Below, piece after piece: positions 8,953 to 39,407 of a stretch of 64,000 bases of DNA. The stretch covers positions 3,968,001-4,032,000 of the forward strand of contig CM000154.2 in assembly GCA_000004695.1 (NCBI GenBank), read 5' to 3'. The position numbers and the translations under genes were made by a program. Source of the DNA: Dictyostelium discoideum. Its lineage: Eukaryota. Numbering within the stretch: the first letter of the stretch is position 1; every line of letters starts with the position of its first letter. Below the pieces are notes generated by a model that did no database searches, was not told the DNA's origin, and saw nothing but the letters and a program-made list of their open reading frames with translations.

Positions 8953-15217
<6,265 letters not shown>

Positions 15218-15669: not shown

Positions 15670-18235
15670 ATGATGATTAGTGATACAGAAAATCAACCAT
15701 TATCACCAAATAAAAATTCAAGTGGTAATAGTGGTAGAAATGATTTAATTATTAAACTTGTATTTCCACCATCATCATCTATAAGAAGTAAATTTATGTT
15801 TGTTCAAGAGAATCAAAAAGTTAGTGACATAGTAGATTATGCAACTCAATTAGCAGGTTTAAACCCTGGTTATAGTTTACAATTATCAGCATCACCAACA
15901 ACAGGTAGACCTCAATGGTTAGATGATGATCAATTATTAATAAGTTATTCAATTCCAACTTCTGTATGTTATATTATTATATTTATATACACATATACAT
16001 ATATCATAATAATAATAATAATAATTATTATTATCTCACAATTTATTAACATATATGCTGAATGAATATATAATATATATATATATATAGAGTGAAATTA
16101 AAATTAAAAGAAAACCAGGTATTAAAAGAAGAAATACACTTTCAACTATTAAACCAATTAAAGAGGGTAAAGTTCAAAAATTAACATCAATTACAAAGAT
16201 TTGGACAACTCGTTATCTAAGATTATATTCAATGAGATTAGCTCATTCTTCAAATGAAAATGATTCAAGTGCTGATCATATTCAATTTGCTGATATAACA
16301 AATGTTGATAAAGAAGTTAATAGAAAATATACTTTTGTAATTTATTGTCAAAATAATAGTAATACCACAAATACAACAACAACATCATCATCATCAACAA
16401 CGACGGCAACAGTGGGTAGTGGTAATGCTGGATTATCGCAAAGTCAAACAGTTTCAAGTTTTCAAAATTTAAGTGCAAGTACCAGTGGTACCAATTTATT
16501 TGCAGAGAGTAAAAAAGAAAAAGAATATGTTTTTAGATGTATAAATCAAAGAGAAGCTGAAGATTGGATCACTTCAATTCGTTCAATGTTAAGATCATCA
16601 AGACCTGATCTTTTATTACCACCTTTAACACCATTTTTATCTGTAAATAATAATACAAAGAATAATAATAATAATAATAATAGTAATTTAATATTACCAC
16701 CATCACCTTCACCATCAAATCAATTATCTTTAAATAATAATAATAATAGTAATAGTAATAATAATAATAATATATGGACTTCACCAACATTACCAAGTTC
16801 AATGCCACCACCAACAACGCCAATAATATCATTAAATCAAAGTGTAACACCAACAAATGAAAAGAATAGTAGTAGTGCTACTACTATTGATAGAGAAATA
16901 ACACCATCACAAACACCAACTAAACAAAGATCACTCTCCTTTTCATTTTCAAAAATTGGTGGTAATAAAAGAAAAGAATTACCACCACCATTTATACAAA
17001 ATCAATCATCATCATCAACATCATCATCACCTTCATCAACAAGTTCTACATCATCATCATCAACACCACCACCACCACCTACACAATCTTTATCAGAAAG
17101 AAATAATCAATTGGAGGAAGAGATAAAAAGATTAAATGAAGTATTAAATAGGGATACAAAATCTAAAGTAGAACTTGAAAAGAAGTATCAAAAGATTAAA
17201 GCGAAAATGGCGATTTTAAAGAAACAAAGATCAAGATCACTCTCTACTCCTGCAACACCAGAAGTTCCAAGAAAAGATAAATCTTCTTTTATTCCAACAT
17301 TTTTAATTGGTGGTAGTAGAGTTAAAGATAAAGATAAAGATTTACAACAACAACAACAGCAACAACAACAACAATCACAAAATGCTACAGCAACAACAAC
17401 ATCAAATACACAAGTTTCACATAAACGTCATTCATCAAGTTCTCAATCATTTAATTTAAATAATTTAAATAATGGAAGTTCATATTCAAATAAAGGAATA
17501 ATGATGGATGATGATAATACAGATAATGATATAACCAGTAGTGAAATGTTTACAGGTAGTGTATTTGATGATGCTGATATTTCAGATTTTGAAAAGGATA
17601 AAGAGATCAAAGATTTGAAAGATCAATTGGTTAGAATTAAAGAAAAGATACAATTAGATTTAAATGAAAAAACTAAAGTTGAAACTTCTTTTAAATTATT
17701 GGAAAAAGAATTATTCACCCAAAAGAAATTGGATGAAAAGAGAGAAAGAGAAATACTTGTAAATGAACAAAGACAAGATGATCAATTAGATTCTATGGCT
17801 GAATTAGCTTCACGTCTAAAGAAAACTTTATTCGATTTGAAAGAAAAGTTAGAAAACGAACAACAACAACAAGAAGATGAAGAAGAAGAAGATGAAGAAA
17901 ATGAATATATTGATGTTGAGGATGGTCATGATGATGATACTAATAATAATATTAGTAATATCAATCATGATGATAGTTATCAAAATGAAAATCAATATAA
18001 TATCAATGGTAAACATAATAATAGTAGTAATAATAATAATAATAATAAAGAACATACTATCAATAATGAAAATGAAGAAGACGATGAAGAGTTAGATGTA
18101 GATTATGGTGATATAGGTGATGACATTGAAGATTATGATGATGATAAAAATGAATCTTATATTGAGAGTGGTAATATTACGACTGCATCAATAAAAGAAG
18201 ATATTGATTATCAGGATCTTGAATCAACTATATAA
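15670..18235 (+). CDS. PH-domain and coiled-coil protein with ubiquitin-like N-terminus and long poly-N/S/Q tracts, 2 exons: join(15670..15963,16091..18235)
   Basis: Exon 1 ends ...SIPTS at a GTATGT donor, then a TATATAG acceptor. The PH domain is KEGKVQKLTSITKIWTTRYLRLYSMRLAHS...KYTFVIYCQ...EKEYVFRCINQREAEDWITSIRSML. The coiled coil includes LEEEIKRLNEVLNRDTKSKVELEKKYQKIKAKMAILKK. The C-terminus is acidic. Confidence 0.65.
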
Positions 18236-19061: not shown

Positions 19062-19157
19062 TGGAGAAGAAGGGTATCGATCCCTTTACCTTATGGAAAT
19101 CTGATTATCGTTGCTGTTTATGCAAACCATACGCTCTACCATATGAGCTACATCCCC
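19062..19157 (-). tRNA. tRNA-Ala(UGC) with a 23-nt intron
   Basis: The minus-strand read is GGGGATG TA GCTC ATATGGTA GAGC G TATGG TTTGCAT [aaacagcaacgataatcagattt] CCATA AGGTA AAGGG ATCGATA CCCTT CTTCTCC A. The G3:U70 pair is the Ala identity element. The anticodon loop TTTGCAT gives UGC. The anticodon stem TATGG/CCATA re-forms only once the 23-nt insert is removed. The T-arm GGGATCGATACCC is canonical. Confidence 0.75.
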
Positions 19158-24462: not shown

Positions 24463-24921
24463 ATGTCAGCAATTTGTGTTATAAAAGGAGATGGAGTCGA
24501 TGGTATAATTAATTTTAAACAAAATGATAATAAATCACCAGTTATAATTAGTGGAGTAATTTCAGGATTAAAAGAGGGTAAACATGGATTTCATGTTCAC
24601 GAATTTGGAGATACAACCAATGGGTGTTTATCAGCAGGAGCTCATTTTAATCCATTTAAAAAAGAACATGGTTCACCAAATGATGAAAATCGTCATGTTG
24701 GTGATTTAGGTAATATAGAATCTAATAAAGATAAGAAATCAATTATAAACATTACAGATAATATCATAACATTGTTTGGTCAAAATAGTATAATTGGTAG
24801 ATCAATAGTTGTGCATGATAAAGAAGATGATTTAGGCAGAGGTAATTCACAAGATTCTAAAATAACTGGTAATGCTGGTTCAAGACTTGGTTGTGGTATA
24901 ATTGCACTATCAAAAATTTAA
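24463..24921 (+). CDS. Cu/Zn superoxide dismutase (SOD1 family), 152 aa, single exon
   Basis: Metal-ligand signature [14 protein letters not shown] and C-terminal signature [13 protein letters not shown], plus conserved DLGNI. The protein is full length. Confidence 0.9.
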
Positions 24922-25061: not shown

Positions 25062-25755
25062 TTATTGAATATTACTAAATATGAAAGATTGATGGGGTGG
25101 TAATTTTAGGAAATTCCATTTTGAAATAAAAGGATTAATCAAGTAATAAAGTTTATCATCACTATTTTTAATATAATCAATGTTGAAATGATTATTACTT
25201 AAATCTACATATTCAGTTAATAAATTTAATTTTGATTCAAATGTTTTAATTGAAATTTTTAAATTTGAATCAATTTCATTATCACTATTTCTTTTTGATA
25301 TTATTTCTTCATTATTATTACCTTCTTCATCATTAATATTTCCATATCCATTATTTTCATTATTATTTCCATTATCATTATTATTATCATTATTATTATT
25401 AAATGATAAATCAATATTGATTTTATTATTATCATGATTATTTAATAAATTATAAAGTAAAGTGAAAATAGCGATTATTGAAAGATTACAATTTCTAAAT
25501 GAAACTTTTTTTAAAGATTTACAAAGTGGTAAATGTTTAATGAGTATTTTTGAACCTTTAATACCAATATTATTATTTTGTAATTGTAATACCAATAATC
25601 TATTTGAATTTTCAATTAATTTACCAACACTTGTGATATCATCCATTGTTGATAATTCCATATCATCAATAACCAATTTACTAATTTTATTAAATTCACT
25701 ATTATCTAAAATTGATAATGATACTGGTGTCATTGCTGATGTTATTACATTCATC

Positions 25756-25793
<38 letters not shown>

Positions 25794-27319
25794 GCTTGTT
25801 GTTGTTGTTGTTGTTGTTGATTTAATTGAATTTGAACCAATATCTAAAGTTGGAATTAAACTACATTTTTTAAATAAATTAGTTAATGTTTGATTTGATA
25901 ATTTATCTAAACCACAAGATCTAATTTCAAATTCATGTAAATTTGAAAGTATATTACAAGTTGATGATGATAATAATTGAAAACCACTATCACCAATTTC
26001 TTCATTACCAGATAATTTTAATACTATTAAATTTGTTGAAGAAGAAGATAATAATAATAATGATTCAAAAATGATTTTAAATGATTGAAAAGTTAAATTA
26101 CAATAACTTAAATTTAAAGTTGTTAATGGTGAAAAAGTTAACCAATTTAAAAAGATATTTGAATCTAATTTTGAAAATCTATTAAATGAAAGATTTACAT
26201 TTTTAATATACTTTGGTTGATAATTTAATGATTTAATTGCCAATGTTAGCTTGCTAATAGTTTCTCTATTCAATGCACAATTAATTAAAGATAATTCTTC
26301 AACATTATATAACGATAGAAATATTGAAATCATTTGATCAATTGATTGAATTGATAATCTATTATTAGTGAATGAAATCGATTTAATTGTAGCTCTATTT
26401 CTAAATGATTCCAAATGAAAAGATAATGTAATTTCCAATAATGTTGATTCTTTAAAAATTTGATTATTGGTAGTGGTAGCAGTAGTATCATTTACTAAAT
26501 AATCACAACTATAACCATTAATTAATAATGAATCATCAGAGATTGAAATTGAATCGATTAGATCAGAATCTTCAAGTTGGTCATGTGAATCATCAATGAA
26601 TGAACATTTCAATTGTTTAATATTTTTCTTTTCAATTAAATCTATTAATTTATATTTCAATGGTACTTCTTTTTCATTACCAACATAGAATTTATCAACT
26701 TGAATAATTTTTTCAAATCTATTATATCCTAATAATTTAATTCTATCATTACATCTTTCTCTTAACCAATTTAAATCATATTCATTTGATTCTAATCCAA
26801 TAATTGGTATAAATAATATAATATCTAAAAATATTTTAACTTTAATAAATTTATATTTATTTAAAATTGTAGTTATTGTTATTGCTGTTGTTGTCGTTGT
26901 ATTTGATTTTTTAATTGGTGATATTAAATTATTATTATCATTGTTGTTATTGATGGTATTGTTGGTATCATCAAATACCTTATTTAAATTCTTTTTCCAA
27001 TCTTTATTTTTTTTAATTGGTACATCATTTGGAACAATAAAGTCATTAGTCCAACATGGTAATAATTCGCCATTACTATCATAATGACTTGGTGAATGAT
27101 ATTCAATTTCATTTTGATCGAAATCATCTTCAATTGAATAATTATTAGTACTACTACTATTATTATTATTTGGTGATTTCGTAGGTGATAATGGTGATGG
27201 TGATGATGTATTAAATCTTCTTTTAGTTGGTGTTGAAAGTTTTGAAGGTGTTGAAATTCTACTATTACTATTACCATTGATATTACTACTACTACTACTA
27301 TTATTATTTTTTAAAATCG

Positions 27320-27351
<32 letters not shown>

Positions 27352-30128
27352 CTATCAACAATAATTGGATCTTTAATACTTCCAGTATTTTCATAACTTT
27401 TATATTTTCTTTTTTGTTCTTCTTCTTGTTGTTCCTTTTGTAATTGTTCTAATAATGGACCTGATGAAGGATAAATTATGAAATCATCTTTATAGGAAGG
27501 TAAATCAACTGGTTTACCTGTGATTTTTGAATATTCTAAACCATCAGCACCTACTATATAACTTGAACCAACTTGAAAATGTGATCTTGTCTTTTTAGAT
27601 GATGATGATGATGATAATAATCCTCCTTCTTCAAAATTAAAATTCATTTCCCTTTTATTATTTTCATTCCTTTGAATTTGTAATAAATATTCTGTATCTA
27701 GTATTTCATTTTCAAGTTTCTCTCTTTCTTCTTTTTTATTCCTTAATTCTTCTAATATTTCTTTTCTACTTTTACCATTACCATTACTATTACTATTACC
27801 ATTACTATTACCATTACTCTTACCATTACTGTTACCATTACTATTACCATTACCATTACCATTACTATTACCATTATCAATATTATTTTTATTATTTTCT
27901 AGTATTATTGGAGATGATTTATCAATTGACATTGGTGAATTATTACCAGTTTTTAAATAATCAGCACTATTATTTAGATTATCTTCAAATGATAAATTCT
28001 CAAAAGATAAATCCTTAGTTCCATCTTTCTTTTTTGGTGAAATTTTAAATTTTGAAGATTCTGTATTATCTCTATCATCACCACCATCATCAATATAGTT
28101 AATATAATCAGTATCACAATCATAAGAGTTTTTAATATTCTTTTGAAATTGTTTTGATAGAGAGTATTTTTGTGATTGTGATAATGATAATGATTGTGAT
28201 GATGATGATAATGATAATGATAATGATGGTGATGATGATTGATAATTTTCTTGTTCTTGTTTTAATTTTTTAATTCTTTCATTTACTTTTGATTCTTTTA
28301 TTAAAGTTTCTTTATAAAATTTTGAAAAATCATCAAATTCTAAATAAACTAATAATAAATTTGAAATTGCCATTAATTTCCTTTCAAAAATTGAAATTAA
28401 TATTTGATATTCTTCTTCTTGATCTTCTCCTCCCTCTTTTTCTTTTTCAAATTGATCATTCTCTAAAATTTTAATTGCATCATTTAATAAACTAATTCTT
28501 TTTTCCTTTCTACTATCACCAAATGGTTCTAACCTTTTCAATGCATTTGAATAATTTATTTTTGCTAATGCTATTATTTGTATTATTTGTTGTTGTTGTT
28601 GTTGTTGTAATTGTAGATTATTATTATTATTATTACTGTTTTCATTTATTTTATTACTAAATTCTATTATAGATCTACTTAAACCAATTGAGATATTAAA
28701 ATATTTTTTTATTTTTAAACAATCTAAATAATTTGAATGATCTTCTAAAACTAAAAATAATTTATCATATTTTTTTAAATAAATTAATGATTTTTCATAT
28801 TCTACCCAATATTTTAATTTCTTTTCAATGAAATAAAAATATCTATTTTCATAATCATCTGGTTTCTCTTTATCTAATTGATCTAAAATCGTTTCATATA
28901 TTAAAATTAAATTTTCATGATATAGAGTTATATCTCTATTATTATTATTATTATTATTATTATCATCTTCATTTTTATTTTTATCTTTATTATTATTATT
29001 TGAATTTAAAATTGAATTTAATAATTTTTCAGATTCAATTCTATTTTTATTAATTTTAATTGAATTTTTTAAACGATTCATTTGAAAATCTAAATATGAT
29101 CTCTTTATTAAATGTGGACACTTTTCAGATTCTTTTTCAAGTTGTTTAATTGTTTCTTTAAATTCTTTATTTCTTTCATCACTATAATAGCATTCAAGTA
29201 ATAATTGATAACAATCAAATTTATCTTTATCCATTTTAGTTGTTGATGATGATCTATTAATTCTTTCATTTAAATAATAACTTGCTCCAACTGCATCATG
29301 ACATTTTAAACATAATAATCCTAAATTATAATATTGATTTCCTTCCATATCTTTTTTACATTTTTCTTCAACTAATAAAAAAAAAATAATAATAATAATA
29401 ATCATATATATATATTAATAATTAATTTTTTAATTTTTAAAATTATAATGTATAATATTATTCTTACTCTTTTTATAAAATGATAAAGCTTTTTTATATT
29501 GTTCTAAATGAATACTACAATAAATTTCATTTGATAAAAGTTCAATATTCTTTATAAAATCTTTAATGTTTTCAGATGATTGATTATCAATTTCTAAAAG
29601 TTCAACTGAATATTGATATGCTAAAACTTTTAAATACTTTATTGCTTTCCTTATTATTGTATATGGATTATTGTTTTTATTATAAATTTTATTTTTATTA
29701 TTTGTTGAAGAATCTTCATTATCTAATTTATTTAATTTATTACAATAAAATACACCAATGTCATGAAAACAATCAAATGATATTTTATAAAATTTCTTTG
29801 TTGGTGGTTGAAATGTTTTAAGTTTCGATTGAAAATGTTCAATCCTTATGATTATATCATTTTCATTTAATATGTCAATACCAAATAGCATATTGGTATT
29901 AAATACACCAATTAAAATACCTAAAATATCATATAATGTACTCTCTTTGATATCATTATCATTATTATTATTGTTTTTATTATTATAGTCACTACCAACA
30001 CTATTATATATTTTATTTATAATTTCCCATCCTTTTCTATATTCATCTCTAGTTTTCTTTTTTTTTTCAAATCCACCTTTTTCTGATAATTTTGCTGATT
30101 TTAATATATTTGATAATTGTACTTCCAT
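25062..30128 (-). CDS. Large leucine-rich-repeat (RNI-like) protein with N-terminal helical/TPR-like region, coiled coils and poly-N/Q/S tracts, 2 exons: complement(join(25062..29371,29468..30128)), ~1680 aa
   Basis: Exon 1 (MEVQLSNILKSAKLSEKGG...YKKALSFYKK) ends at a GTAAGA donor in phase 1. A TTATTAG acceptor gives ...IEEKCKKDMEGNQYYNLGLLCLKCH... The C-terminal half has LRRs of the ribonuclease-inhibitor type: NLSFNRFSKLDSNIFLNWL...LNLSYCNLTFQSFKII...LKLSGNEEIGDSGFQLL...LHEFEIRSCGLDKLSNQTL...LDIGSNSI. Confidence 0.6.
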
Positions 30129-30560
30129 TTTAAAAAATGGTCAATTTATTATTTATTATAATAAAAAAAAAAAAAAAAAAATAGAAAACTTCTTGTTTAT
30201 TTATTAATTATTTATTTATTTTATTTATTTATTTATTTTATTTATTTATTTATTGTTTATTTGTTTGTAAAAAAAAAGAAAATAAAAAAAAAAAAAAAAA
30301 AATAATAAACTTCTTGCTTTTTTTGAAAATTAATTTTTTTTTATTTTTCAATTTTTTTTTTAAAAAAAAAAAGGAGGGAAAATTTTTTAGATATTTTAAT
30401 TGTTTCTATGAATATAACAATTAAAAACAACTTTACAAAATAAGAAATCTAATAAATATATATATTTGAATAATTAAATAATTATATAAATAAAAGGTTG
30501 AATAATAATTGTGATTCTAAGCATTATTTAATCTTGATAAAATTTTTGAATGGGCTATTA
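30105..30560. repeat. Copy 1 of a ~440-bp duplicated segment (promoter plus first ~25 nt of the gene at 30128)
   Basis: About 90% identical to 33035..33470 (...ccattt(t)aaaaaatggtYaatttattat...aaaatagaaaacttcttgtttatttat...aaggagg(g)aaaatttttt(t)agatattttaatt...ataaataaaaggttgaaYaataattgtgattctaagcattatttaatcttgataaaattttt). A third 45-bp copy sits at 35634..35680. Confidence 0.8.
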
Positions 30561-31028
30561 GTATATGTAATTAATTTAAACTTAATTTAGGTCATCAGAA
30601 ACTACATATAATGAAATCATGTTCACCTCAACCCACACCTACAATTTGGTACAATGCAAATATGTGTTAAGGTCAAAAAAAAAAAAAAAAAAGTTTTATT
30701 AATAAAAAAAAGTTTTATTATTAAAATTTTCTATTAAAAAAAAAAAAAAAAAAAAAAAAATTTAATAAATAATAAAAATTAATAATGCCTTACAGAAGGA
30801 ATTTGTTTTAAATTTTGTATCCCTTTCTATTTTAATTTCAAAAAAAAAAAAATAGATATCAATGGTTGCACTCTAAAAAATAGAAATATATAAAAAAAAA
30901 TTATAATAATAAAAAAAAGAGTTTGAAATAAATAAAATTAAAATAAGCACCAAAAAAGATTATAATTTTAGCTTTTTTTCTCTTATTTCGAAAAAAATAA
31001 ATTAGGAAATTCCCTTAGACACATTTCA

Positions 31029-31078
<50 letters not shown>

Positions 31079-31435
31079 AATGGATAAAATTATTTATATA
31101 TTATTCTCCATTTTTAACTCTTGAGAGTGCTATCCGGACTATTAGTGCTAATAAAAGCCCTTCTAAGGGATGGTCGACCTTGCCATTATGTGTAGCCAAT
31201 CAAATAATGAAGCATCAAACCCTACTTTTTTTTTTCTTTTTTTTTTTGCTTTTCACTTTTTTTTTTATTTCACCCATGTAATAAAAATTAATTTCTAAAT
31301 ATGGATTGATTGATTCTTTAGAAATGTAAAAAAATTAAAATGTTTGAAATAAGCATCAAAAAAATAAAAAAGTGTTTAACCACTTCCCAAAAAAAAAATA
31401 AATTGGGTAATTCCCTTTGACACATTTTATATTTT

Positions 31436-31468
<33 letters not shown>

Positions 31469-31559
31469 TTTATAAACAAAAATTTAATTTAGTTCAAAAA
31501 ATTATTCTATATTATTTTAATAATTCAAATAATAATTTTATCTGTTTTACAAAAAAAAT

Positions 31560-31932
31560 GAATAAATCAAATAATGAAATATCAAACCCACAATAAGGAA
31601 GCTCAAATGATTCTAATGTTAATTCATCAAATGGTGGTTCAAGTAGTCCAAATTTTTTTATAGTTTATAAAGATGGTATTCAATACAAATTTCACAATTC
31701 ATCAACTTCGAAAGATGTTCTCAACTTTTTTGGATTAGAAAATGGTTATCTACAAACTCAACTTGGCCATCAAAAAGTTATTAATGCTAATCCAAATTAT
31801 TTACCAACATCTGGTACTTTTCATGTTGTTGAACAATCTTCAAAATTTTTATTTTTCAAAATCGCTGTATTAATAATTTCAATTAACTTTATAATTCAAA
31901 TTATATATTATTCAATTAAAATTTTAAAATAA
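31560..31932 (+). pseudogene. Disrupted small ORF (one in-frame TAA at codon 13) encoding a ubiquitin-like N-terminus plus C-terminal hydrophobic tail; likely pseudogene or gene with sequence error
   Basis: MNKSNNEISNPQ*GSSNDSNVNSSNGGSSSPNFFIVYKDGIQYKFHNSSTSKDVLNFFGLENGY...SKFLFFKIAVLIISINFIIQIIYYSIKILK. The frame is otherwise open for 123 codons. Its first ~25 nt are duplicated at 31197..31222. Confidence 0.3.
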
Positions 31933-33034
31933 TTATATAATAAATAAAACTTTTTTTATAATTTTAGTTTTTGATTTATTTTTATTTTTTAGTAATTTTT
32001 TTTTTTTTTTTTTTTTTCTTTTTTTTTTTTCTTTCTTTTTTTTTTTTTTTATTTTTTTTAATTTTTTTTTTTTCTTTACCTTTTTTTTTTTTTCGATCAT
32101 ATAGAAATAAAAAATAAAAATTAAAAGAATTATAACCATATCAAACCCATACCAAAATTTATGTTTACAAAATCAAATTTTAAATTCACACCATAATAAC
32201 TCAACAATAATAATAAATATTGATAATGGTGATTGCAATTTAGATTGTTCATGATTTTTTACAATAAATAACTTTAATAATATTTCATTCTTACCTAAAT
32301 AATCAAATAATAATAATAATAATAAAATTATAGAAATTATTTAAGAATAGATAACTCTAATGTTAAATTCGATGGATCAATAATAATAATAAACACATTT
32401 GAAATACTAATAATTAGTAATAGTGAAATATCATTCAATAATGGAGCAGTATTTTATCTTGAAGGCTTTCTTGAAAGAAAAGAAACATGTTCAAAGATTA
32501 AATTTTCAACTCAACCATCATAGTGTATTTGATCTAATGGTATAAATTCAGATTCTAGGATACTTGAATTACGAAATCTTTCAATAGAAAATATATCTTT
32601 AATTATAAATTATCATACAGATGATAGTAGCAGTAGTAAAGAAAAAAAAAAGTAAAGTAAAAAAAGTACGGTAGAGAATTCAAAGATTTTAAATTTCATT
32701 TCAGATAGTGATATGATTAATAACTCATATCATTCTACTATTATATTTAAGTATCAACCAAGTTAATTGATCAATACCAAACAACCATCTATCAATTTCA
32801 ATTTGAAAATAATCAATTTTCAAGTTATTTAATTTTTTCAAAAAAAAAAATTCCACCGTTAATCTCTTCAATAAAAAGATACTAAAAAAATCAAGGTGGT
32901 GATAGTTCAACTCTTTTTATGTTTAATGCTTCAAATATCATTGTAAATTATTGTCAATCCTCTTTTAATAATTAGCTTCAGTAAATGTTTTGAAACTGGT
33001 CAAACTATCAATATATTTTTCTGTTAATTATCAA

Positions 33035-33177
33035 ATATTTGATAATTGTACAATTCCATTTAAAAAATGGTTAATTTATTATATAAAAAAAAAAAAAATA
33101 GAAAACTTCTTGTTTATTTATTTGTTTATTTATTTACTTATTTATTTATTATTTATTCATTTGTTTGTGAAAAAAAG

Positions 33178-33209
<32 letters not shown>

Positions 33210-33470
33210 AACTTTTTGTTTGTTTGTGAAAACTAATATTTTTTATTTTTCTCAATTCTTTTTTTTTAAAAAAAAAAAGGAGGAAAATTTTTTTGGATAT
33301 TTTAATTCTGTATGAATATAACAAGTAAAAACAACTGTACAAAATAAGAAATCTAATAAATATATATTTGAATAATTAAATAATTATATAAATAAAAGGT
33401 TGAACAATAATTGTGATTCTAAGCATTATTTAATCTTGATAAAATTTTTGTATGGGCTATCACTATTTTT
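33035..33470. repeat. Copy 2 of the ~440-bp duplicated segment, carrying a decayed copy of the 30128 gene start
   Basis: Contains ATGGAATTGTACAATTATCAAATAT on the minus strand, against ATGGAAGTACAATTATCAAATAT at the real gene start, followed immediately by a stop. The rest is collinear with 30129..30560. Confidence 0.8.
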
Positions 33471-33561
33471 TCTTTTAAAGAATTTCTTCACTTTTATAAA
33501 ACTTTTTTTAATTCTATTTAGAAACAAAAAAAAAAAAAAAAAAAATTAGTCTGAAATTCAA

Positions 33562-33769
33562 TTAAAATAATATAATAAATAAATTTAAAAATTTTAATAA
33601 ATACCCTTTAGCAACCATTTGAAAGAAAAAATGTATCATTTTAATAATGGGATAGCTTTGAATTTGTCTATTTTTTTTATAATCTTCATCAGATTCATTA
33701 CTACCATTTGTATTTAAATTATTGTCACTATTATTAATACCAATATTATTACTATTATTATTTATATTA

Positions 33770-33816
<47 letters not shown>

Positions 33817-34521
33817 TGAAGATGATGATAATGATAGAGGTGAAGAGGATAAAGAAGAACTTGTGGAAGGTGTAGTTTTACCAACAAGTGCAGTTGAATC
33901 ATATGATCTTAAAACTCTAATTTCTTTTTCTCTCTCTTCAACTTTTTGTTCCAAATGTGAAATTTTATCTTTCATTTTTTGGCAATAACATTCAACCTCT
34001 AAATGATATGTAATATCTTGTTCAGTCTTTCCACTATAAAAACAACCAAACTCTTTATTTGGACAATATCTATTACAAAAGAATAAAGTTGTACTTGATT
34101 CCCATAATGCATTATTATCAAAATCTTCATTATTTATATTATTATTATTATTATTATTTATATTATTGTTATTAATATTATTATTAATATTTGGTGATGG
34201 TGGTTGTTGTGATGGTGAAATATTTTCAAATGATGGTGATTTTGAAGAATTGAAAGATGTATTTGATTTTGGTGATGAAAATGAATCACCTGATGATTTC
34301 ATTTCATAGAAATCTTGATATGATAGTGTTGGTGATGATTTATCATTACTATGATCACTAATAACACCATGACTATTAAATTTGCATTGTCTTTCATGTG
34401 CCAATTTTGATCCATAGCTAATTAAACAATTACATCCATTTACTTTGGTTGTAATTTCACCATTATTTGGGTTTTCTTCAACACCATATTGACAATAACA
34501 TAATAATTGGTCAAACTCATC

Positions 34522-34555
<34 letters not shown>

Positions 34556-34869
34556 AATTTAAAAAAAAAAAAAAAATAAATTACAAAATTAATATTTTAT
34601 ATTTTATAATTATTTTATTTCAAATTTTATTAAAATTGATAATAATAAAAATAATAATAATAATTTTTACCTTTTAATTGTTCATTAATAGAAATATTTG
34701 TTAAAGGAAAATTATCAATTGGACAATGTGTTAATGTTTCAACACAAAATGAACAAAAACAATGTAAACAAGTACTATTTTCAAATGGTACATCCATTAA
34801 TCCGCCATGATATGAACATAAAAATTTATCTTCTGGGTTGATTACAAATAATGTTTTAGAAACTTCCAT
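33562..34869 (-). CDS. TRAF-type zinc-finger / RING-finger protein with coiled coil and poly-N/S tracts, 2 exons: complement(join(33562..34520,34681..34869))
   Basis: Exon 1 holds a RING-like motif: MEVSKTLFVINPEDKFLCSYHGGLMDVPFENSTCLHCFCSFCVETLTHCPIDNFPL (compare TRAF6 CPIC...TPCGHRFCKACI...HKCPVD). The donor after ...NEQLK-G is GTAAAA, the acceptor is AAAAAG, and the join gives ...DEFDQLLCYCQYG...CNCLISYGSKLAHERQCKF. A second TRAF zinc finger is FFCNRYCPNKEFGCFYSGKTEQDITYHLEVECYCQ, followed by the coiled coil KISHLEQKVEEREKEIRVL. Confidence 0.6.
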
Positions 34870-35689
34870 TTTAATTTTTAAATTATTATTATTATTATTT
34901 TTTTTTTAAAACAAATAATTTTTTTTTATAATAATTTTGTTAATTATATTTTTATTTTTATTATTATTATTGTATTAATTTATAAAGTGTTTGTTTTTAA
35001 TACCATAAAAAAATAAAAATTAAATAATTAAAAAATTAAAAAATTAAAAAAAAAATTTATTAATAAATTTTTTTTTTTTTTTTTTTACTATTTTTGAAGT
35101 TGTTAATATAAATTAGGGAATAATTTTTAATAATTTATTTTTTTTATTAAATTTTTTTTAATTTTTTCTTTTTCTTTTTTTTCTTTTTTTTGAAATTACA
35201 AATTCTTTGATTGATCATATATTTTTAGCATCAAGTACACATTTATTGATATGTAAGTGTGTGTTAGTGTGTTTTTTTGAAATTGATTCATACAAAATTT
35301 ATCTGGGTGGGGTGTTTTTTTTATTTTTGGACAAAAGTAATAATAATAATAAAAATAAATGGGGTTGTTTTCATAAATCATTTCAGTTAAAATTAATTTT
35401 TTATAATTTTTTTTTATACCCATTGAATTATTTTTTTATTTTTTAATTACTTTTTTAAATATTATCTATTTAAATAATTTTTTTTTTTTTTTAAATTAAT
35501 TTTTTTTTTCATTAATTAATAAAACTTATTTTGAATTGAATGAATTTAATTTTTTATTTTCATTTCTTTTTTTATTTTTTTTGTTTCTTTTTATTTGATA
35601 TTACCTGTTTTATGAATTGTTAAAAAAGTAATAACCATGGTTAATTTATTATTATATAAAAAAAATAGAAAACTTCTGGTTATTTTCTA

Positions 35690-37430
35690 CATCAAAAGGA
35701 AATATTCGATTATTGCCATATCTCGATTATTCAATATTTTTTTTTTTTTTTTTGAATTGGATAACGCAATTATTATTTGCTTCTCCTTGAGATGCTAGAT
35801 CTCATTTTATTTTATTTTTTTTTTTTTTTTTACAGGGTCTCTAAAAGAGGGGTTAGTTTACTTTTTTTTTTTTTTTTTTTTTTTTGTTTCGAATTTTGAA
35901 TTGTATTATTACTTTTGATTAAAACATCTTTTTTGTCCAAACTTTTTTCTAAATCTTTTTTTATTTTATCGTCTGGTTCGTGATTGATGTTTATGACGTA
36001 TTTGAATTGTTTTTTTTTTAATTGAGTTTTATCCACAATTTCGCTTATTTTTTGTAGGCATTTGTGTTGCTTAATATTTGTGGTGTTGTTTGTGATTTTC
36101 ATTTTATTTTCTTTCTATTTTTTATATTTAGACAAAAAAGATGTTTTAATCAAAAGTAATAATACATTCAAAATTCTCACAGACAGTATTAGTACAGTAA
36201 TCTATTTTGTAAATATGTTCGATGCAGAATTAAAAGGACAATTTATAACCACTCTAAGACCAAAAAATATGTATACGGATTTCGATTGGTATAAATCACT
36301 CACAGAAATAGAATGGGTAATAGAAAATGAAGGATGTAAACTAATTAAATCTGAAATTAAAGGCGAAACTCTAATTATCAAAACAGTGAAAAGAGTCGTA
36401 GAAGAATATGACACTATCATTGAACTAGACAATCTAACATTAATTGGTCACTCCAACAAAGGATGGAGAGATCAAACCTCATTACCAGAAAATCAAGAAG
36501 AAAACAAAAATAAAAAACAATCAGATGAACAACAACCAAAATCTACATCAGAACAAATACCAAAACAAGGAAAAAGAACAATCATTATCCCACCAATCAC
36601 CTCCTCATCTAATGATAAAACATTTATGGCCCTAGATGATACAGCTCAAAAGGTAATAGATGCATCACTAGAAAACGTAGATGAACTAACAAGAATAGAG
36701 AATGAGATCAATACCCAATCGATAAAAAATCAAGAAATTAAAACAAAATCAGAAAAACCTATTGAACCACCATCTCCATACAATACACCAATAAAACAAC
36801 ACGGCGAAACAAAGAGACTAACAACGGAAGAAAAACTTAGAGAGGTAAATGATATCTTCGACTTCACCAGCCCAAACACTGATGCAATAAGAAAAATAGA
36901 ATTCCCACTTTCAATCCCTTCAAATCAATGGTTCTTCTCCTCTCCAATAAAACATATCATGAGTTTCAGCCCAACCTATGGTACACCATCGAAAATTATC
37001 GATTCACCAAGTAAATTGTTAAACACACCAAAAAACAAACAACAAGACAAAACAAACAGGACCAACAAAACACCAGTCAAACCAAAATTGGGTGAATATG
37101 GACAAAAAAGCATAAAAACAAAAATGGATGAAGATATAGACAACTTCAACAAGGAAATTCTAAAACAAATCAGTAAATCAAAAAACCCCACAAACACACA
37201 AGACCAACAACACAACGAACAAAGTAAAGATCAGTTAGAAGACAAAATAAACCAGAAACTTCAAAAGGTAGATAAAAATCTACCCCAAATAAAACTATAA
37301 AGAAAAACACAATAAGAATAGGTGTTTGGAACGTCCAAGGATCCAACACCATCCAATCTGCCAGCATAATAAACACCGTATTAGACAACAACAAGCTGGA
37401 CGCAGCACTTCTAACTGAAACAAATAAAAC
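35690..37430 (+). mobile_element. TRE5-type (tRNA-upstream) non-LTR retrotransposon, 3'-truncated: 5' modules, intact ORF1 (36215..37300) and the first ~43 codons of ORF2 (37300..37430)
   Basis: ORF1 (MFDAELKGQFITTLRPKNMYTDFDWYKSLTEIEW...QKLQKVDKNLPQIKL) is a hydrophilic, basic protein of ~361 aa. The composition is lower in A+T than host genes. Directly after its stop comes the ORF2 start KNTIRIGVWNVQGSNTIQSASIINTVLDNNKLDAALLTETNK, the AP-endonuclease opening motif of L1-like elements (xxWNxxGxx...LQETH). The element stops about 48 bp before tRNA-Asp, the hallmark TRE5 integration distance. A 31-bp inverted repeat lies in the 5' region (35908..35940 against 36130..36160). Confidence 0.6.
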
Positions 37431-37477
37431 GATTATTCAATATTGTTATTTCTAATTATTAAAAACTTTCACATCAT

Positions 37478-37549
37478 TCCTTGTTGGTCTAGTGGTGAGG
37501 ATTTTCGCCTGTCACGCGAAAGGCCCGGGTTCAATTCCCGGACAGGGAG
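37478..37549 (+). tRNA. tRNA-Asp(GUC)
   Basis: TCCTTGTTGGTCTAGTGGTGAGGATTTTCGCCTGTCACGCGAAAGGCCCGGGTTCAATTCCCGGACAGGGAG is near-identical in architecture to eukaryotic tRNA-Asp-GTC. The anticodon loop is CTGTCAC. A T6 pol III terminator follows, and an ex-B box AATCGCAGGTTCGACTC sits at 37573..37589. Confidence 0.9.
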
Positions 37550-37572
37550 TTTTTTAAGATTCCAAAAAATAA

Positions 37573-37639: not shown

Positions 37640-39407
37640 CGCGATCAAGAGGATACAAGATACACGTGAAAAGTAATTCATCCTTTTCTATCTTTAATCT
37701 CGGTCAATTTTAACCAATCTTTCAAAAAAAATCACCAATCCACCACGATCTACAGATCTAACTTACCAAATCGCCGATTCAAAGGAATCCCATCGAGATG
37801 AATTCCTACGCAGACGCGGCTAAAATGGCCAACCCCTCCACCCATATGGACGAGGCATCGGAGAACTTCATTAAGGAATTCTCCACAAAAACAGCAGAGA
37901 TAAAGGAGACCTACCCCAAACTATCAATAGGCCTCAAAGACATCTCCAAATACTGCGAGACCATATTGAACATGACTGCGCTCTCAACCTATGAGAAGAA
38001 CAACGGATTCTACCCAATTACTCGAATTCCCCAAAATGGATCTCAAGGGGTTAGAAGAAATGNNNNNNNNNNNNNNNNNNNNNNNNNNNNNNNNNNNNNN
38101 NNNNNNNNNNNNNNNNNNNNNNNNNNNNNNNNNNNNNNNNNNNNNNNNNNNNNNNNNNNNNNTTTACAAATGCATAAATCTGCAAATAATTCAATATACA
38201 TAATAAGTTGGATGGATCAAATCATCAACAAATCAATCTCTTCTCCATACCTTATAAAAATCAAAAAAGAATGGGAAAATTATGCAACTCAAATTGGACA
38301 TCTAAAAGATAAAGTTCAAATCCTACAACCAATATTAATAAAAAATCAAACCTCTCAAACATTAAACACAAATAATATTCCACTACCACCAACACTCAAA
38401 GAAATCTACTCGACAATACTCAACAATCACCAATGTAAATCAAAAGACTATATTGGCAAGAAATATTCAGATCTACTTCTTACTTCGCACCAACAATCAA
38501 TACAACTATTACGGAAATACACATACCACCAACTATTTGTCAAAATTCAAAAATTAAAAGATCCATAAGGCCGTGATACAATGCAAAGATTCCATGCTAG
38601 ATGTTTTCCGATTAATCATCTACACAACAAAGTTTGCCCCATTTGCAACAATGAAATGAATAATGATCCCTATGGTCATTTGTTTTTCAATTGTCAGCAC
38701 ACAATCAACTTCATAAACCACGACAAATTAAAATATTTTATATATAAAAATTGCAATGGAAACAAAAACTGGTCACTAACAAAAAACCAAACAATAAAAT
38801 TATTCACACTCATTTATAAACCACAAACAAACAACAAAGCATTTAAACCAGATCCAACTATCAATATTAATTTTCATTTTGCAGAAAACGCACAATATAA
38901 AAAATACAGGTTCAACTAGAATTATATAAACACAAATCTTGATCTAGTCAGAACACATGCATATTAGAACATAATCTCATTTGTTATTCACCAAATATGG
39001 ATATGGTTATGCAAATCATTATTTGGCATCAATATAACTCAATCAATTGACAATTGGAACAACTAAATAAACAACACAACACTAGATTATGATATATTAA
39101 AATCAAAATGACACAAGCTAATAAGATTGGAATATTCAAGAACATTATCAAACTTTAACCAATACTCAATTAAAAACAACCTCACAAAAACTCAAAAAGA
39201 AACCCAATGGTCTGAAACCATCAAAAAATTTAAAAAAGAATGGAGCATAAACACAAATGAACCAATTCCAACAATTACACCACCAATTAATTATTAATTA
39301 CCTAATCTAAAATAACATACCATTTTAAATTCACAAAAACTAAAAAACCTAAAATAAATAAATAAAAATAACATACTAATTGTATACTACAATAGTTTAT
39401 TTATATC

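Follow-up and report, generated by a model that had tools for sequence, protein, structure and literature searches.

A local direct repeat upstream of a large gene on chromosome 5 of Dictyostelium discoideum and a later short copy near a tRNA-Asp gene

A segment of about 450-470 bp lying upstream of a large gene on chromosome 5 of Dictyostelium discoideum AX4 occurs twice, in direct orientation, within the window studied here (the whole analysed stretch of 64 kb), and a short piece of it occurs a third time. We consider it probable that this repeat, designated A, with its copies A1 and A2, is ordinary local repair scarring, in which the native upstream segment was copied once locally and a short piece was copied again later (A3). 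The features concerned are as follows.

29430..30128, minus strand: first exon ORF of the large gene, a 1,656-aa model spanning about 25062-30128
30105..30572, minus strand: A1, native upstream region of the large gene with its 5' UTR, ATG (30128) and first 8 codons; the parent copy
33035..33474, minus strand: A2, derived direct copy of A, sited between the small-gene region and the 3' end of a RING-like gene
35637..35677, plus strand: A3, A2-type patch of 34-40 bp with the core GTTAATTTATTATTATATAAAAAAAATAGAAAAC, in the AX4 lineage only

Extent and identity of the repeat

Global alignment of A1 (30105-30572) with A2 (33035-33474) gives 402 identical bases out of 430, or 93.5% without gaps, in agreement with the first-pass annotation, in which the upstream region and first 25 nt of the large gene recurred at about 90% identity. 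A genuine direct repeat is also recovered by blastn at 30105-30564 against 33035-33466 (84.1% over 484 columns, gaps counted), and the cross-lineage comparison adds about 8 bp of homology, up to 30572/33474. The pair scores 324 in alignment, whereas 239 other AT-rich windows score 59 on average and 215 at most. Identity reaches 96% in the right-hand 146-149 bp, while the mismatch in the left plus middle parts, which are low-complexity DNA, is 6.5% or 17% depending on the alignment method. The ATG of the large gene (30128, minus strand) and its first 8 codons fall inside A1; the copied ATG in A2 is followed by a stop after 11 codons, and not directly as had been stated. The spacing from A1 to A2 is 2,930 bp and that from A2 to A3 about 2,570 bp.

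The same layout recurs in an independent AX4-like assembly, GCA_054883475.1 (L001, 99.6% identical), and is therefore not an assembly artefact. Neither the 64-kb window nor the orthologous sequence of three other assemblies (about 60 kb) contains any further copy of A, and the unit is syntenic in every lineage examined. Across these loci, the sequence comparison supports the view that A would be a low-copy local duplication and not a fragment of an element.

DNA between and around the copies

30597..30711, plus strand: B-left, conserved block directly right of A1, holding the annotated first exon (30611-30664) of the small gene DDB_G0290345, gene model P0003
30926..31226, plus strand: copy 1 of a tandem duplication with a unit of about 400 bp upstream of the small gene, AX4 lineage only, with a GC-rich island at 31100-31200
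31329..31592, plus strand: copy 2 of the tandem duplication, probably the ancestral copy, found in other lineages
31663..31932, plus strand: conserved coding core of DDB_G0290345, 89 aa with a hydrophobic C-terminal tail
32093..33037, no strand assigned: 945-bp segment, AX4 lineage only, exon-like GC of 22-25%, no homolog
33026..33047, no strand assigned: perfect 22-bp palindrome AATTATCAAATATTTGATAATT across the left edge of A2; only 5 palindromes of this kind occur in the 64 kb
33426..34869, minus strand: RING-like zinc-finger gene, probably DDB_G0290347 (PMC4118049)

B-left is syntenic in D. cf. discoideum (L003) and in the two divergent D. discoideum assemblies ACTFIW (L004) and ACTFIR (L005), at 75-78% identity. 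The short internal duplications reported earlier between the copies are real though weak, with 82 of 98 positions identical, gaps included, between 30926-31034 and 31329-31435, and a 26-bp pair at 31197 and 31565 that continues them in register. The supposed broken ORF at 31560-31932 turns out to be the annotated gene DDB_G0290345; its core (31663-31932) is intact, its upstream ATG at 31560 is not conserved, and its protein is 94% identical to that of ACTFIW and about 50-55% to that of D. cf. discoideum (tblastx). The 945-bp segment is absent from ACTFIW and ACTFIR, in which a T-rich tract directly abuts A2, and the palindrome is not at the ACTFIW junction. Part of this segment, 32230-32640, had been described as degenerate coding-like sequence. 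Its GC content is indeed exon-like, but stop-free runs are equal in length on both strands, and neither a protein homolog nor a Pfam family was found for this part or for the 945-bp segment.

The large gene, previously labelled an LRR gene, has no Pfam match at E<=0.1, and the label is thus without Pfam support at that threshold. Searching the large gene against 30565-33100 by tblastn returned only matches at E>3, and 30565-33035 against the window by tblastx nothing at E<=0.01. Given that the DNA between the copies resembles neither flanking gene, no duplicated gene is decaying there. The gene death proposed in the first-pass annotation is contradicted by this, by the 25 nt that were all that was copied of the large gene, and by the conservation and annotation of the small gene.

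Occurrence in other lineages and age

Both A1 and A2 are found at the same positions in ACTFIW and ACTFIR, where the A2 orthologues (10517-10913 in L004; 9647-10035 in L005, reversed) carry A2-specific bases. Copy-specific characters were read from a seven-sequence alignment. The A1 copies and the D. cf. discoideum copy have GTAC-TTCC where the A2 copies have G(T/C)ACAATTCC; at a second position ATTGTTTATTTGTTTGT in the A1 copies corresponds to ATTT(A/T)TTCATTTGTTTGT in the A2 copies, and at a third GAAAATTAATTTT corresponds to GAAAAC(T/A)AAT(A/T)(T/A)TT. The neighbouring genes of the AX4 and ACTFIW/ACTFIR lineages are 96.6% identical (3.4% substitutions). Since both lineages have the two copies with their copy-specific bases, the duplication is fixed and predates the lineage split, and it can no longer be called young, as it had been.

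D. cf. discoideum is the outgroup, with 94.8% and 95.2% identity to the two D. discoideum lineages. Its locus has the order large gene, A1-type copy, B-left and small gene, and covers only up to 520 bp past the small gene, the position of A2 being beyond its end. Given that this A1-type copy stands beside the same gene and the same downstream block, A is the native upstream region and not a dispersed element. A1 and the large gene are contiguous in AX4, ACTFIT, ACTFIW, ACTFIR and D. cf. discoideum; the right-hand 150 bp or so of A1 are deleted in ACTFIW/ACTFIR and partly deleted in D. cf. discoideum.

The third piece and the TRE5-A insertion

TRE5-A is a non-LTR retrotransposon (AB-ORF1/ORF2-BC) that targets tRNA genes, and one such element adjoins A3.

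35739..37429, no strand assigned: composite TRE5-A insertion, with a 15-bp target-site duplication on either side (35724-35738 and 37430-37444), outside the A duplication
37477..37550, plus strand: tRNA-Asp(GTC), target of the TRE5-A insertion

The exact motifs ATGGT[T/C]AATTTATTAT and AAATAGAAAACTTCT are limited to the A1, A2 and A3 sites, where their order is kept. A3 has the A2-type T in ATGGTTAATT as well as the TTATTATTATATAAAA string found in the A2 of ACTFIW, and it lies about 100 bp upstream of tRNA-Asp. It is absent at the aligned site in ACTFIW and ACTFIR. At its junctions there are candidate microhomologies, AT(G) and TT(C)T, of 2-4 nt within AT-rich DNA. As in a templated-insertion scar, A3 is a short insert with a matching template nearby and is missing from the sister lineages.

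A third copy of 45 bp had earlier been placed exactly at the 5' edge of the TRE5 element. The copy itself stands, at 34-40 bp, but not its placement. Because the limits of TRE5-A are set by the target-site duplications and by an oligo-T tract (35739-35755) beside the left one, A3 stops 46 bp short of the duplication, and the element end on its side is the 3' (oligo-A) end (PMC3159450). The element stands at a distance of about 33-47 bp from tRNA-Asp, on its upstream side, and has both a target-site duplication and an oligo-A end, but the repeat unit shares no sequence with it. No similarity of A to TRE5-A or TRE3-like sequence was found in the window, and the TRE5-A region matches A only at 35637-35685. 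A was accordingly rejected as a TRE5-A fragment, having no element modules in common with it and matching only outside the target-site duplication. In ACTFIW the TRE5 site is empty although A1 and A2 already exist. This, together with the position of A3, speaks against the earlier suggestion that the segment owed its mobility to retrotransposition at the tRNA hotspot; TRE5-A probably inserted later and independently.

Origin of the copies

In the history that we propose, A, comprising the promoter, the 5' UTR and the first 25 coding bases of the large minus-strand gene, is the native intergenic region. As the lineage comparison shows, a single A copy of about 470 bp was inserted about 2.4 kb away, in direct orientation, before AX4 split from ACTFIW/ACTFIR. 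It is bordered on one side by the T-rich tract that follows DDB_G0290345 and on the other by the 3' end of the RING-like gene. What was copied is intergenic apart from 25 coding nt, and the event therefore neither added nor removed a gene copy. A2 probably arose by a template switch during repair or replication (an insertional duplication), for which both of its junctions, being in T-runs, would give microhomology. Intrachromosomal insertional duplications of the MMBIR/FoSTeS type are comparable in size (a few hundred bp), in direct orientation and in distance (a few kb), as well as in their junctions in short homopolymer microhomology, their lack of mobile-element hallmarks and the fixation of the event in a lineage; unlike in these, the mechanism for A2 is read from the junction sequence alone.

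A3, the 945-bp segment and the extra tandem copy of about 400 bp were probably gained in the AX4 lineage, although the 945-bp segment and A3 may instead have been lost in ACTFIW/ACTFIR. Short templated insertions, left where double-strand breaks are mended by polymerase-theta-type end joining with snap-back or copying from a nearby template, resemble A3, a 34-bp copy of sequence 2.6 kb away with 2-4 nt of possible microhomology, and their snap-back form resembles the junction of the 945-bp segment, which has an 11-nt inverted copy of adjacent A2 sequence.

From their positions, A1 would act as the promoter of the large gene and the right-hand 150 bp of A2 would now provide the RING-like gene with its 3' flank (3' UTR or terminator). 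Such a role would account for the unusual conservation of these 150 bp; the rest of A2, left and middle, is probably inert. It is a tentative possibility, compatible with the origin favoured here, that A2 has been kept as functional sequence, either with its right part supplying the RING-like gene with a 3' UTR, terminator or last exon, or with its promoter part giving rise to a minus-strand transcript antisense to DDB_G0290345. Between AX4 and ACTFIW, the right-hand 143 bp of A2 have 3 differences in 143 positions and the left plus middle parts 15 in 205, a contrast resting on small counts, and the same right-hand part is dispensable at A1, given the deletions described above. Two annotations end the RING-like gene inside A2, one of them with a last mini-exon (33426-33513) partly within it, but the ACTFIW model ends at the ORF stop at 33562, short of A2, and the early stop after the copied ATG also speaks against a function.

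Other origins fit less well. The first-pass annotation had seen a young segmental duplication of promoter plus gene, with decaying copies mobilised at the tRNA/TRE5 hotspot. Two near-identical copies and a fragment within 5.6 kb, near a tRNA gene with its TRE5-A, and a 945-bp inter-copy stretch with exon-like GC do invite this reading, but it is highly improbable given the divergence of the lineages that have both copies, the lack of any protein-level trace of a flanking gene between them, the conserved and annotated small ORF, the empty TRE5 site of ACTFIW and the distance of A3 from the target-site duplication, at the element's 3' end (PMC3159450). A tandem duplication of a whole [A+B] unit of about 2.9 kb, with the second B then lost or replaced, would suit the similar spacings of 2,930 and about 2,570 bp, which hint at a former array. 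It is nevertheless improbable, as B (30565-33034) has no residual similarity, in DNA or protein, to the DNA right of A2 (33475-35636), as A3 is a mere 34-bp lineage-specific patch, and as the deletion would have had to stop precisely where A2 starts.

The least credible reading is that of a dispersed repeat, with 30105-33474 as one LTR element or A as the terminal module of a known Dictyostelium transposon. Skipper and DGLT-A are LTR retrotransposon families of Dictyostelium, and the A-B-A layout, in which two direct repeats of about 450 bp enclose about 2.5 kb of decayed-looking DNA, is superficially like an LTR element. Unlike one, it has no TG...CA termini, primer-binding site, polypurine tract or target-site duplication in either orientation (as read directly from the sequence), and no gag/pol, Pfam domain or protein homolog inside, while its 'internal region' holds a conserved host gene. 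Furthermore, the large-gene ORF runs through the A1 boundary, the outgroup has A beside the same gene and downstream block with other content further on, and A is unlike the TRE5-A or TRE3-like sequence of the window.

Implications

The value of these results lies mainly in annotation hygiene. Gene models in this region disagree because of the second promoter-like copy and the 945-bp segment: DDB_G0290345 has been modelled as 107, 116, 122, 130 or 132 aa, and some annotations end the RING-like gene inside A2 and others short of it. The comparison also parts three things that seemed linked in the raw sequence, namely the intergenic duplication, which is old, the small repair scars, which came later, and the TRE5-A insertion, which is independent.

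A broader reading, which we regard as unlikely, is that template-copying repair has acted repeatedly on this 6-kb interval in the AX4 lineage and its ancestors and left a record there, with A2 co-opted to supply the RING-like gene with its 3' end or to serve as an antisense promoter directed at DDB_G0290345. The events would be the 470-bp insertional duplication, the 945-bp insertion by way of an 11-nt snap-back palindrome, the 34-bp templated patch and the tandem duplication of about 400 bp. If such template-copying events cluster non-randomly, the locus could offer a small natural case of this kind of repair in Dictyostelium, and if the repeated-repair reading is true, it would be a naturally formed record of theta-like or MMBIR-type repair in Amoebozoa, beside an RNA polymerase III/TRE integration hotspot.

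Gene content of the region

The region has a G+C content of 23% and was assigned to chromosome 5 of Dictyostelium discoideum AX4 by exact protein look-ups, which also matched one ORF to Q54G70, a Cu/Zn superoxide dismutase, and the small gene flanked by the repeat copies to DDB_G0290345 (Q54G68). DDB_G0290343 has been listed as sod1 in a recent paper, and DDB_G0290347 has been described as a RING-type zinc-finger protein (PMC4118049); judged by gene order, the latter is probably the cysteine-rich gene to the right of the repeat. The features are as follows.

24463-24921, 152-aa ORF, Cu/Zn superoxide dismutase
25062-29405 and 29430-30128, minus strand, large gene; 29430-30128 is the first-exon ORF, with its ATG at 30128
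30105-30572, A1, upstream region and first 25 coding nucleotides of the large gene
30611-31932, small gene DDB_G0290345
32093-33037, 945-bp segment found in the AX4 lineage only
33035-33474, A2, direct copy of A1
33562-34869, minus strand, cysteine-rich RING-like gene
35637-35677, A3, short A2-type patch
35724-37444, TRE5-A insertion including its target-site duplications
37477, tRNA-Asp

The large gene gave zero Pfam matches at E<=0.1, and its earlier label as a leucine-rich repeat gene had a visual pattern as its sole basis. A word-indexed protein search did not return its annotated full-length protein, and the ortholog search yielded a single 232-aa Logan ORF on a contig that stops 48 bp upstream of the ATG. 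At gathering scores, Rfam reported only two tRNAs as RNA genes in the whole window, and nothing meaningful within 30000-35800 at E<=1. The second tRNA (19062-19157, minus strand, 49 bits in Rfam) was not reported by ARAGORN, and its length of 96 nt indicates that it probably contains an intron. Downstream of tRNA-Asp, an ORF at 37798-38568 with up to 46% G+C is broken by a 100-N assembly gap (38063-38162); it is presumed to be a TRE3-type element on the 3' side of the tRNA gene.

A direct repeat of about 470 bp

The direct repeat reported by the first-pass annotation is genuine. A global alignment of A1 with A2 gave 402 identical positions among 430 aligned (80/81 in the left part, 177/194 in the low-complexity middle and 140/146 in the right part), while blastn aligned 30090-30564 with 33019-33466 at 84.1% over 484 columns, gaps counted. 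At 324, the alignment score far exceeds the level that composition alone yields: 239 other AT-rich windows averaged 59 and reached at most 215. Nor is the repeat an assembly artefact, because both copies are present in the independent AX4-like assembly GCA_054883475.1, which is 99.6% identical to window 14433-34952.

The repeat unit includes the ATG of the large gene (30128, minus strand) and its first eight codons. The copied ATG in A2 does run into a stop as claimed, but after 11 codons rather than immediately. A blastn match at 63.5% (31650-33466 against 28699-30564) that would carry the repeat on into the gene body was rejected, as it added only about 30 bits and was comparable to many AT-rich background matches of 57-60%. 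The product of the large gene showed no protein similarity to 30565-33100 by tblastn (best E=3.5), and tblastx found no coding sequence related to 30565-33035 across the whole window. Therefore only about 470 bp, of which 25 nt are coding, were ever copied, and the proposed gene death has no decaying gene copy behind it. The copy in "D. cf. discoideum" runs past the A1/A2 boundary as ...TATCACTATTTTTTC, like A2, thus the copied segment once reached about 30572/33474; the AX4 A1 has diverged since then across its last ten bases.

Comparison across lineages

Three further loci were compared: L003 from D. cf. discoideum (GCA_054859205.1), L004 from ACTFIW (GCA_054859355.1) and L005 from ACTFIR (GCA_054859385.1). 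The last two are labelled D. discoideum, yet they are only about 91% identical to AX4, gaps included. Read rightward, the loci are arranged as follows.

L003: large-gene ortholog; single A copy (16112-16526); about 100 bp; block homologous to 30597-30759; FNIP-repeat-like gene without AX4 counterpart; small-gene ortholog; T-rich tract, where the locus ends
L004 and L005: large gene; A1 without its right-hand ~150 bp; conserved block; small gene; T-rich tract; complete A2 directly after that tract; RING-like gene; region up to 35638; tRNA-Asp

Substitution identity over the superoxide dismutase and large-gene region was 96.6% for AX4/ACTFIW, 94.8% for AX4/cf. discoideum and 95.2% for cf. discoideum/ACTFIW, and D. 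cf. discoideum is therefore the outgroup. Copy orthology was judged from a seven-sequence alignment, in which one set of states is common to the A1 copies and the cf. discoideum copy and another to the three A2 copies. The diagnostic positions read GTAC-TTCC in the former versus G(T/C)ACAATTCC in the latter, ATTGTTTATTTGTTTGT versus ATTT(A/T)TTCATTTGTTTGT, GAAAATTAATTTT versus GAAAAC(T/A)AAT(A/T)(T/A)TT, and ATTTTTCAATTTT versus TTTTCTCAATTC. Given these position-specific states, the A copies cluster by position and not by genome, and the duplication predates the AX4/ACTFIW split; on the same alignment, the left and middle parts of A1 and A2 have not become homogenised since. The duplication had been called young, an age that does not hold, as the A1 and A2 states were already distinct before that split. 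Within AX4, A1 and A2 differ at 38/218 positions in the multiple alignment and at 16/248, with 14 gaps, in the pairwise one, and orthologous A copies show from 12/227 to 23/272 mismatches; such counts are method-dependent in low-complexity DNA, so the age claim is limited to "older than the AX4/ACTFIW split".

Cluster look-ups found no cf. discoideum members in the clusters of the RING-like, Piwi and 335-aa proteins, and the 270 bp compared beyond its T-rich tract had no homology to the AX4 945-bp segment. The FNIP-repeat-like gene of this lineage (461 aa, L003 16795-18480) lies between A and the small gene and has no counterpart there in AX4, ACTFIW or ACTFIR.

DNA between the copies

A block at 30597-30711 is 75-78% conserved in the same place in all lineages, which marks A1 and its neighbour on the right as ancestral. 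The internal duplications noticed earlier were borne out: 30926-31034 matches 31329-31435 at 82/98 positions with several gaps, and the 26-bp pair at 31197 and 31565 continues in register with it. Within the first copy of this ~400-bp tandem duplication, found only in AX4, lies a GC-rich island (31100-31200, 26-30% G+C) that is unmatched in the other three lineages and in Rfam.

What had been taken for a broken ORF at 31560-31932 is the annotated DDB_G0290345, whose AX4 model (107 aa) splices 30611-30664 to 31663-31932. Its last 89 residues, with a hydrophobic tail at the end, share 94% identity with the ACTFIW protein and have a recognisable counterpart in cf. discoideum. The AX4 ATG at 31560 is ACG in ACTFIW and thus not kept, so the in-frame stop sits in upstream sequence and is not a gene lesion. 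The gene has been modelled variously at 107, 122, 116, 132 and 130 aa; the AX4-type models require an intron of roughly 1 kb, very large by Dictyostelium standards, and clear conservation is limited to the last 89 codons.

ACTFIW and ACTFIR lack the 945-bp segment, and in both of them A2 directly adjoins the T-rich tract. The degenerate coding-like sequence seen here in the first pass has a G+C content of 22-25%, exon-like for this genome, but its stop-free runs are nearly equal on both strands (65 and 63 codons), and neither word-indexed search nor Pfam found a homolog. The sole match to the 65-aa stretch, from exhaustive HMMER, was a tandem-repeat junk protein and was treated as spurious. 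Segment and A2 meet in a perfect 22-bp palindrome (33026-33047). Five such palindromes occur in the 64 kb, and this one is not found at the ACTFIW junction. It would be accounted for by snap-back-primed insertion of the segment in the AX4 lineage; a deletion in the ACTFIW/ACTFIR lineage, with its end point only a few bases from the A2 boundary, is less probable.

The right-hand part of A

The right-hand ~150 bp of A1 have been lost in ACTFIW (L004 9241-9260) and ACTFIR (L005 reversed, ~8409), and about 95 bp of this part in cf. discoideum (L003 ~16440), which suggests that it is dispensable at the A1 site. In the right part of A2, AX4 and ACTFIW differ at 3/143 positions versus 15/205 in the rest of A2; the counts are small, and the pattern fits a role as the 3' flank of the RING-like gene. 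Annotations of ACTFIR and of the AX4-like assembly (ACTFIT) give this gene a final 88-nt mini-exon (33426-33513), with its last 41 nt inside A2, and that of ACTFIW ends it at the ORF stop, 33562.

The third piece and TRE5-A

An exact-string search located ATGGT[C/T]AATTTATTAT and AAATAGAAAACTTCT only at 30137/30179, 33067/33096 and 35637/35663, in the same order, and the third copy piece is thereby real. Its described position, exactly at the 5' edge of TRE5, is not. TRE5-A targets sites about 50 bp upstream of tRNA genes, inserts so that its 5' end points at the tRNA gene, and has the architecture AB-ORF1/ORF2-BC (PMC3159450). In AX4, 35739-37429 is flanked by a 15-bp direct repeat, CGATTATTCAATATT, and the right repeat copy ends 32 bp before tRNA-Asp. 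On its left side the insert opens with an oligo-T tract (35739-35755), which, as expected, corresponds to the oligo-A 3' end of an element on the minus strand. A3 ends at 35677, 46 bp outside the target-site duplication, and so lies neither at the TRE5-A edge nor at the 5' end.

In ACTFIW the TRE5-A site is empty and the 34-bp core of A3, GTTAATTTATTATTATATAAAAAAAATAGAAAAC, is missing, with both flanks aligning (...AACCATC joined to TTTGGGTTATTATCTA...); ACTFIR agrees on the A3 site. A3 has A2-type states, namely T in ATGGTTAATT and the string TTATTATTATATAAAA as in the ACTFIW A2. The most plausible reading of A3 is a short insertion templated by A2, 2.6 kb away. Nothing links it mechanistically to TRE5-A, and the suggestion that the retroelement mobilised the segment is wrong.

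The TRE5-A insertion is itself composite. Minus-strand oligo-T and C/B-module-like sequence run from 35739 to about 36100 in the canonical orientation; the plus strand carries ORF1 (36062-37300) and the first 37 ORF2 codons (37318-37429, IGVWNVQGSN...LTETNK). A 51-bp inverted repeat (35891-35941 versus 36127-36176, 96%) seems to represent the B-module, one copy per arm, and the arrangement looks like a 5'-inverted, twin-priming-like insertion. The site upstream of tRNA-Asp holds TRE5-A in AX4 and nothing in ACTFIW; in ACTFIR it holds a different insert of ~650 bp (L005 reversed, ~12370-13030), which includes an oligo-T tract.

Origin of the repeat

A reading of A1, the intervening DNA and A2 as an LTR element fails on termini, primer-binding site, polypurine tract, target-site duplication and coding content, every LTR hallmark examined being absent here. 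A also has no sequence in common with the TRE5-A copy in the window. Its single-locus synteny across four lineages, among the loci compared, argues against a high-copy element and bears out the local duplication proposed earlier.

The compared loci show in which order the events took place and how far the copied segment extends. A1 would serve the large gene as promoter and 5' UTR, and this native upstream region was probably copied by template switching during repair or replication, giving an insertional duplication; the A2 junctions fall in T-runs. The first-pass observation is largely correct and errs on age, gene death and the retroelement link: the locus represents an ordinary insertional duplication within one chromosome, to which small repair scars were added later.
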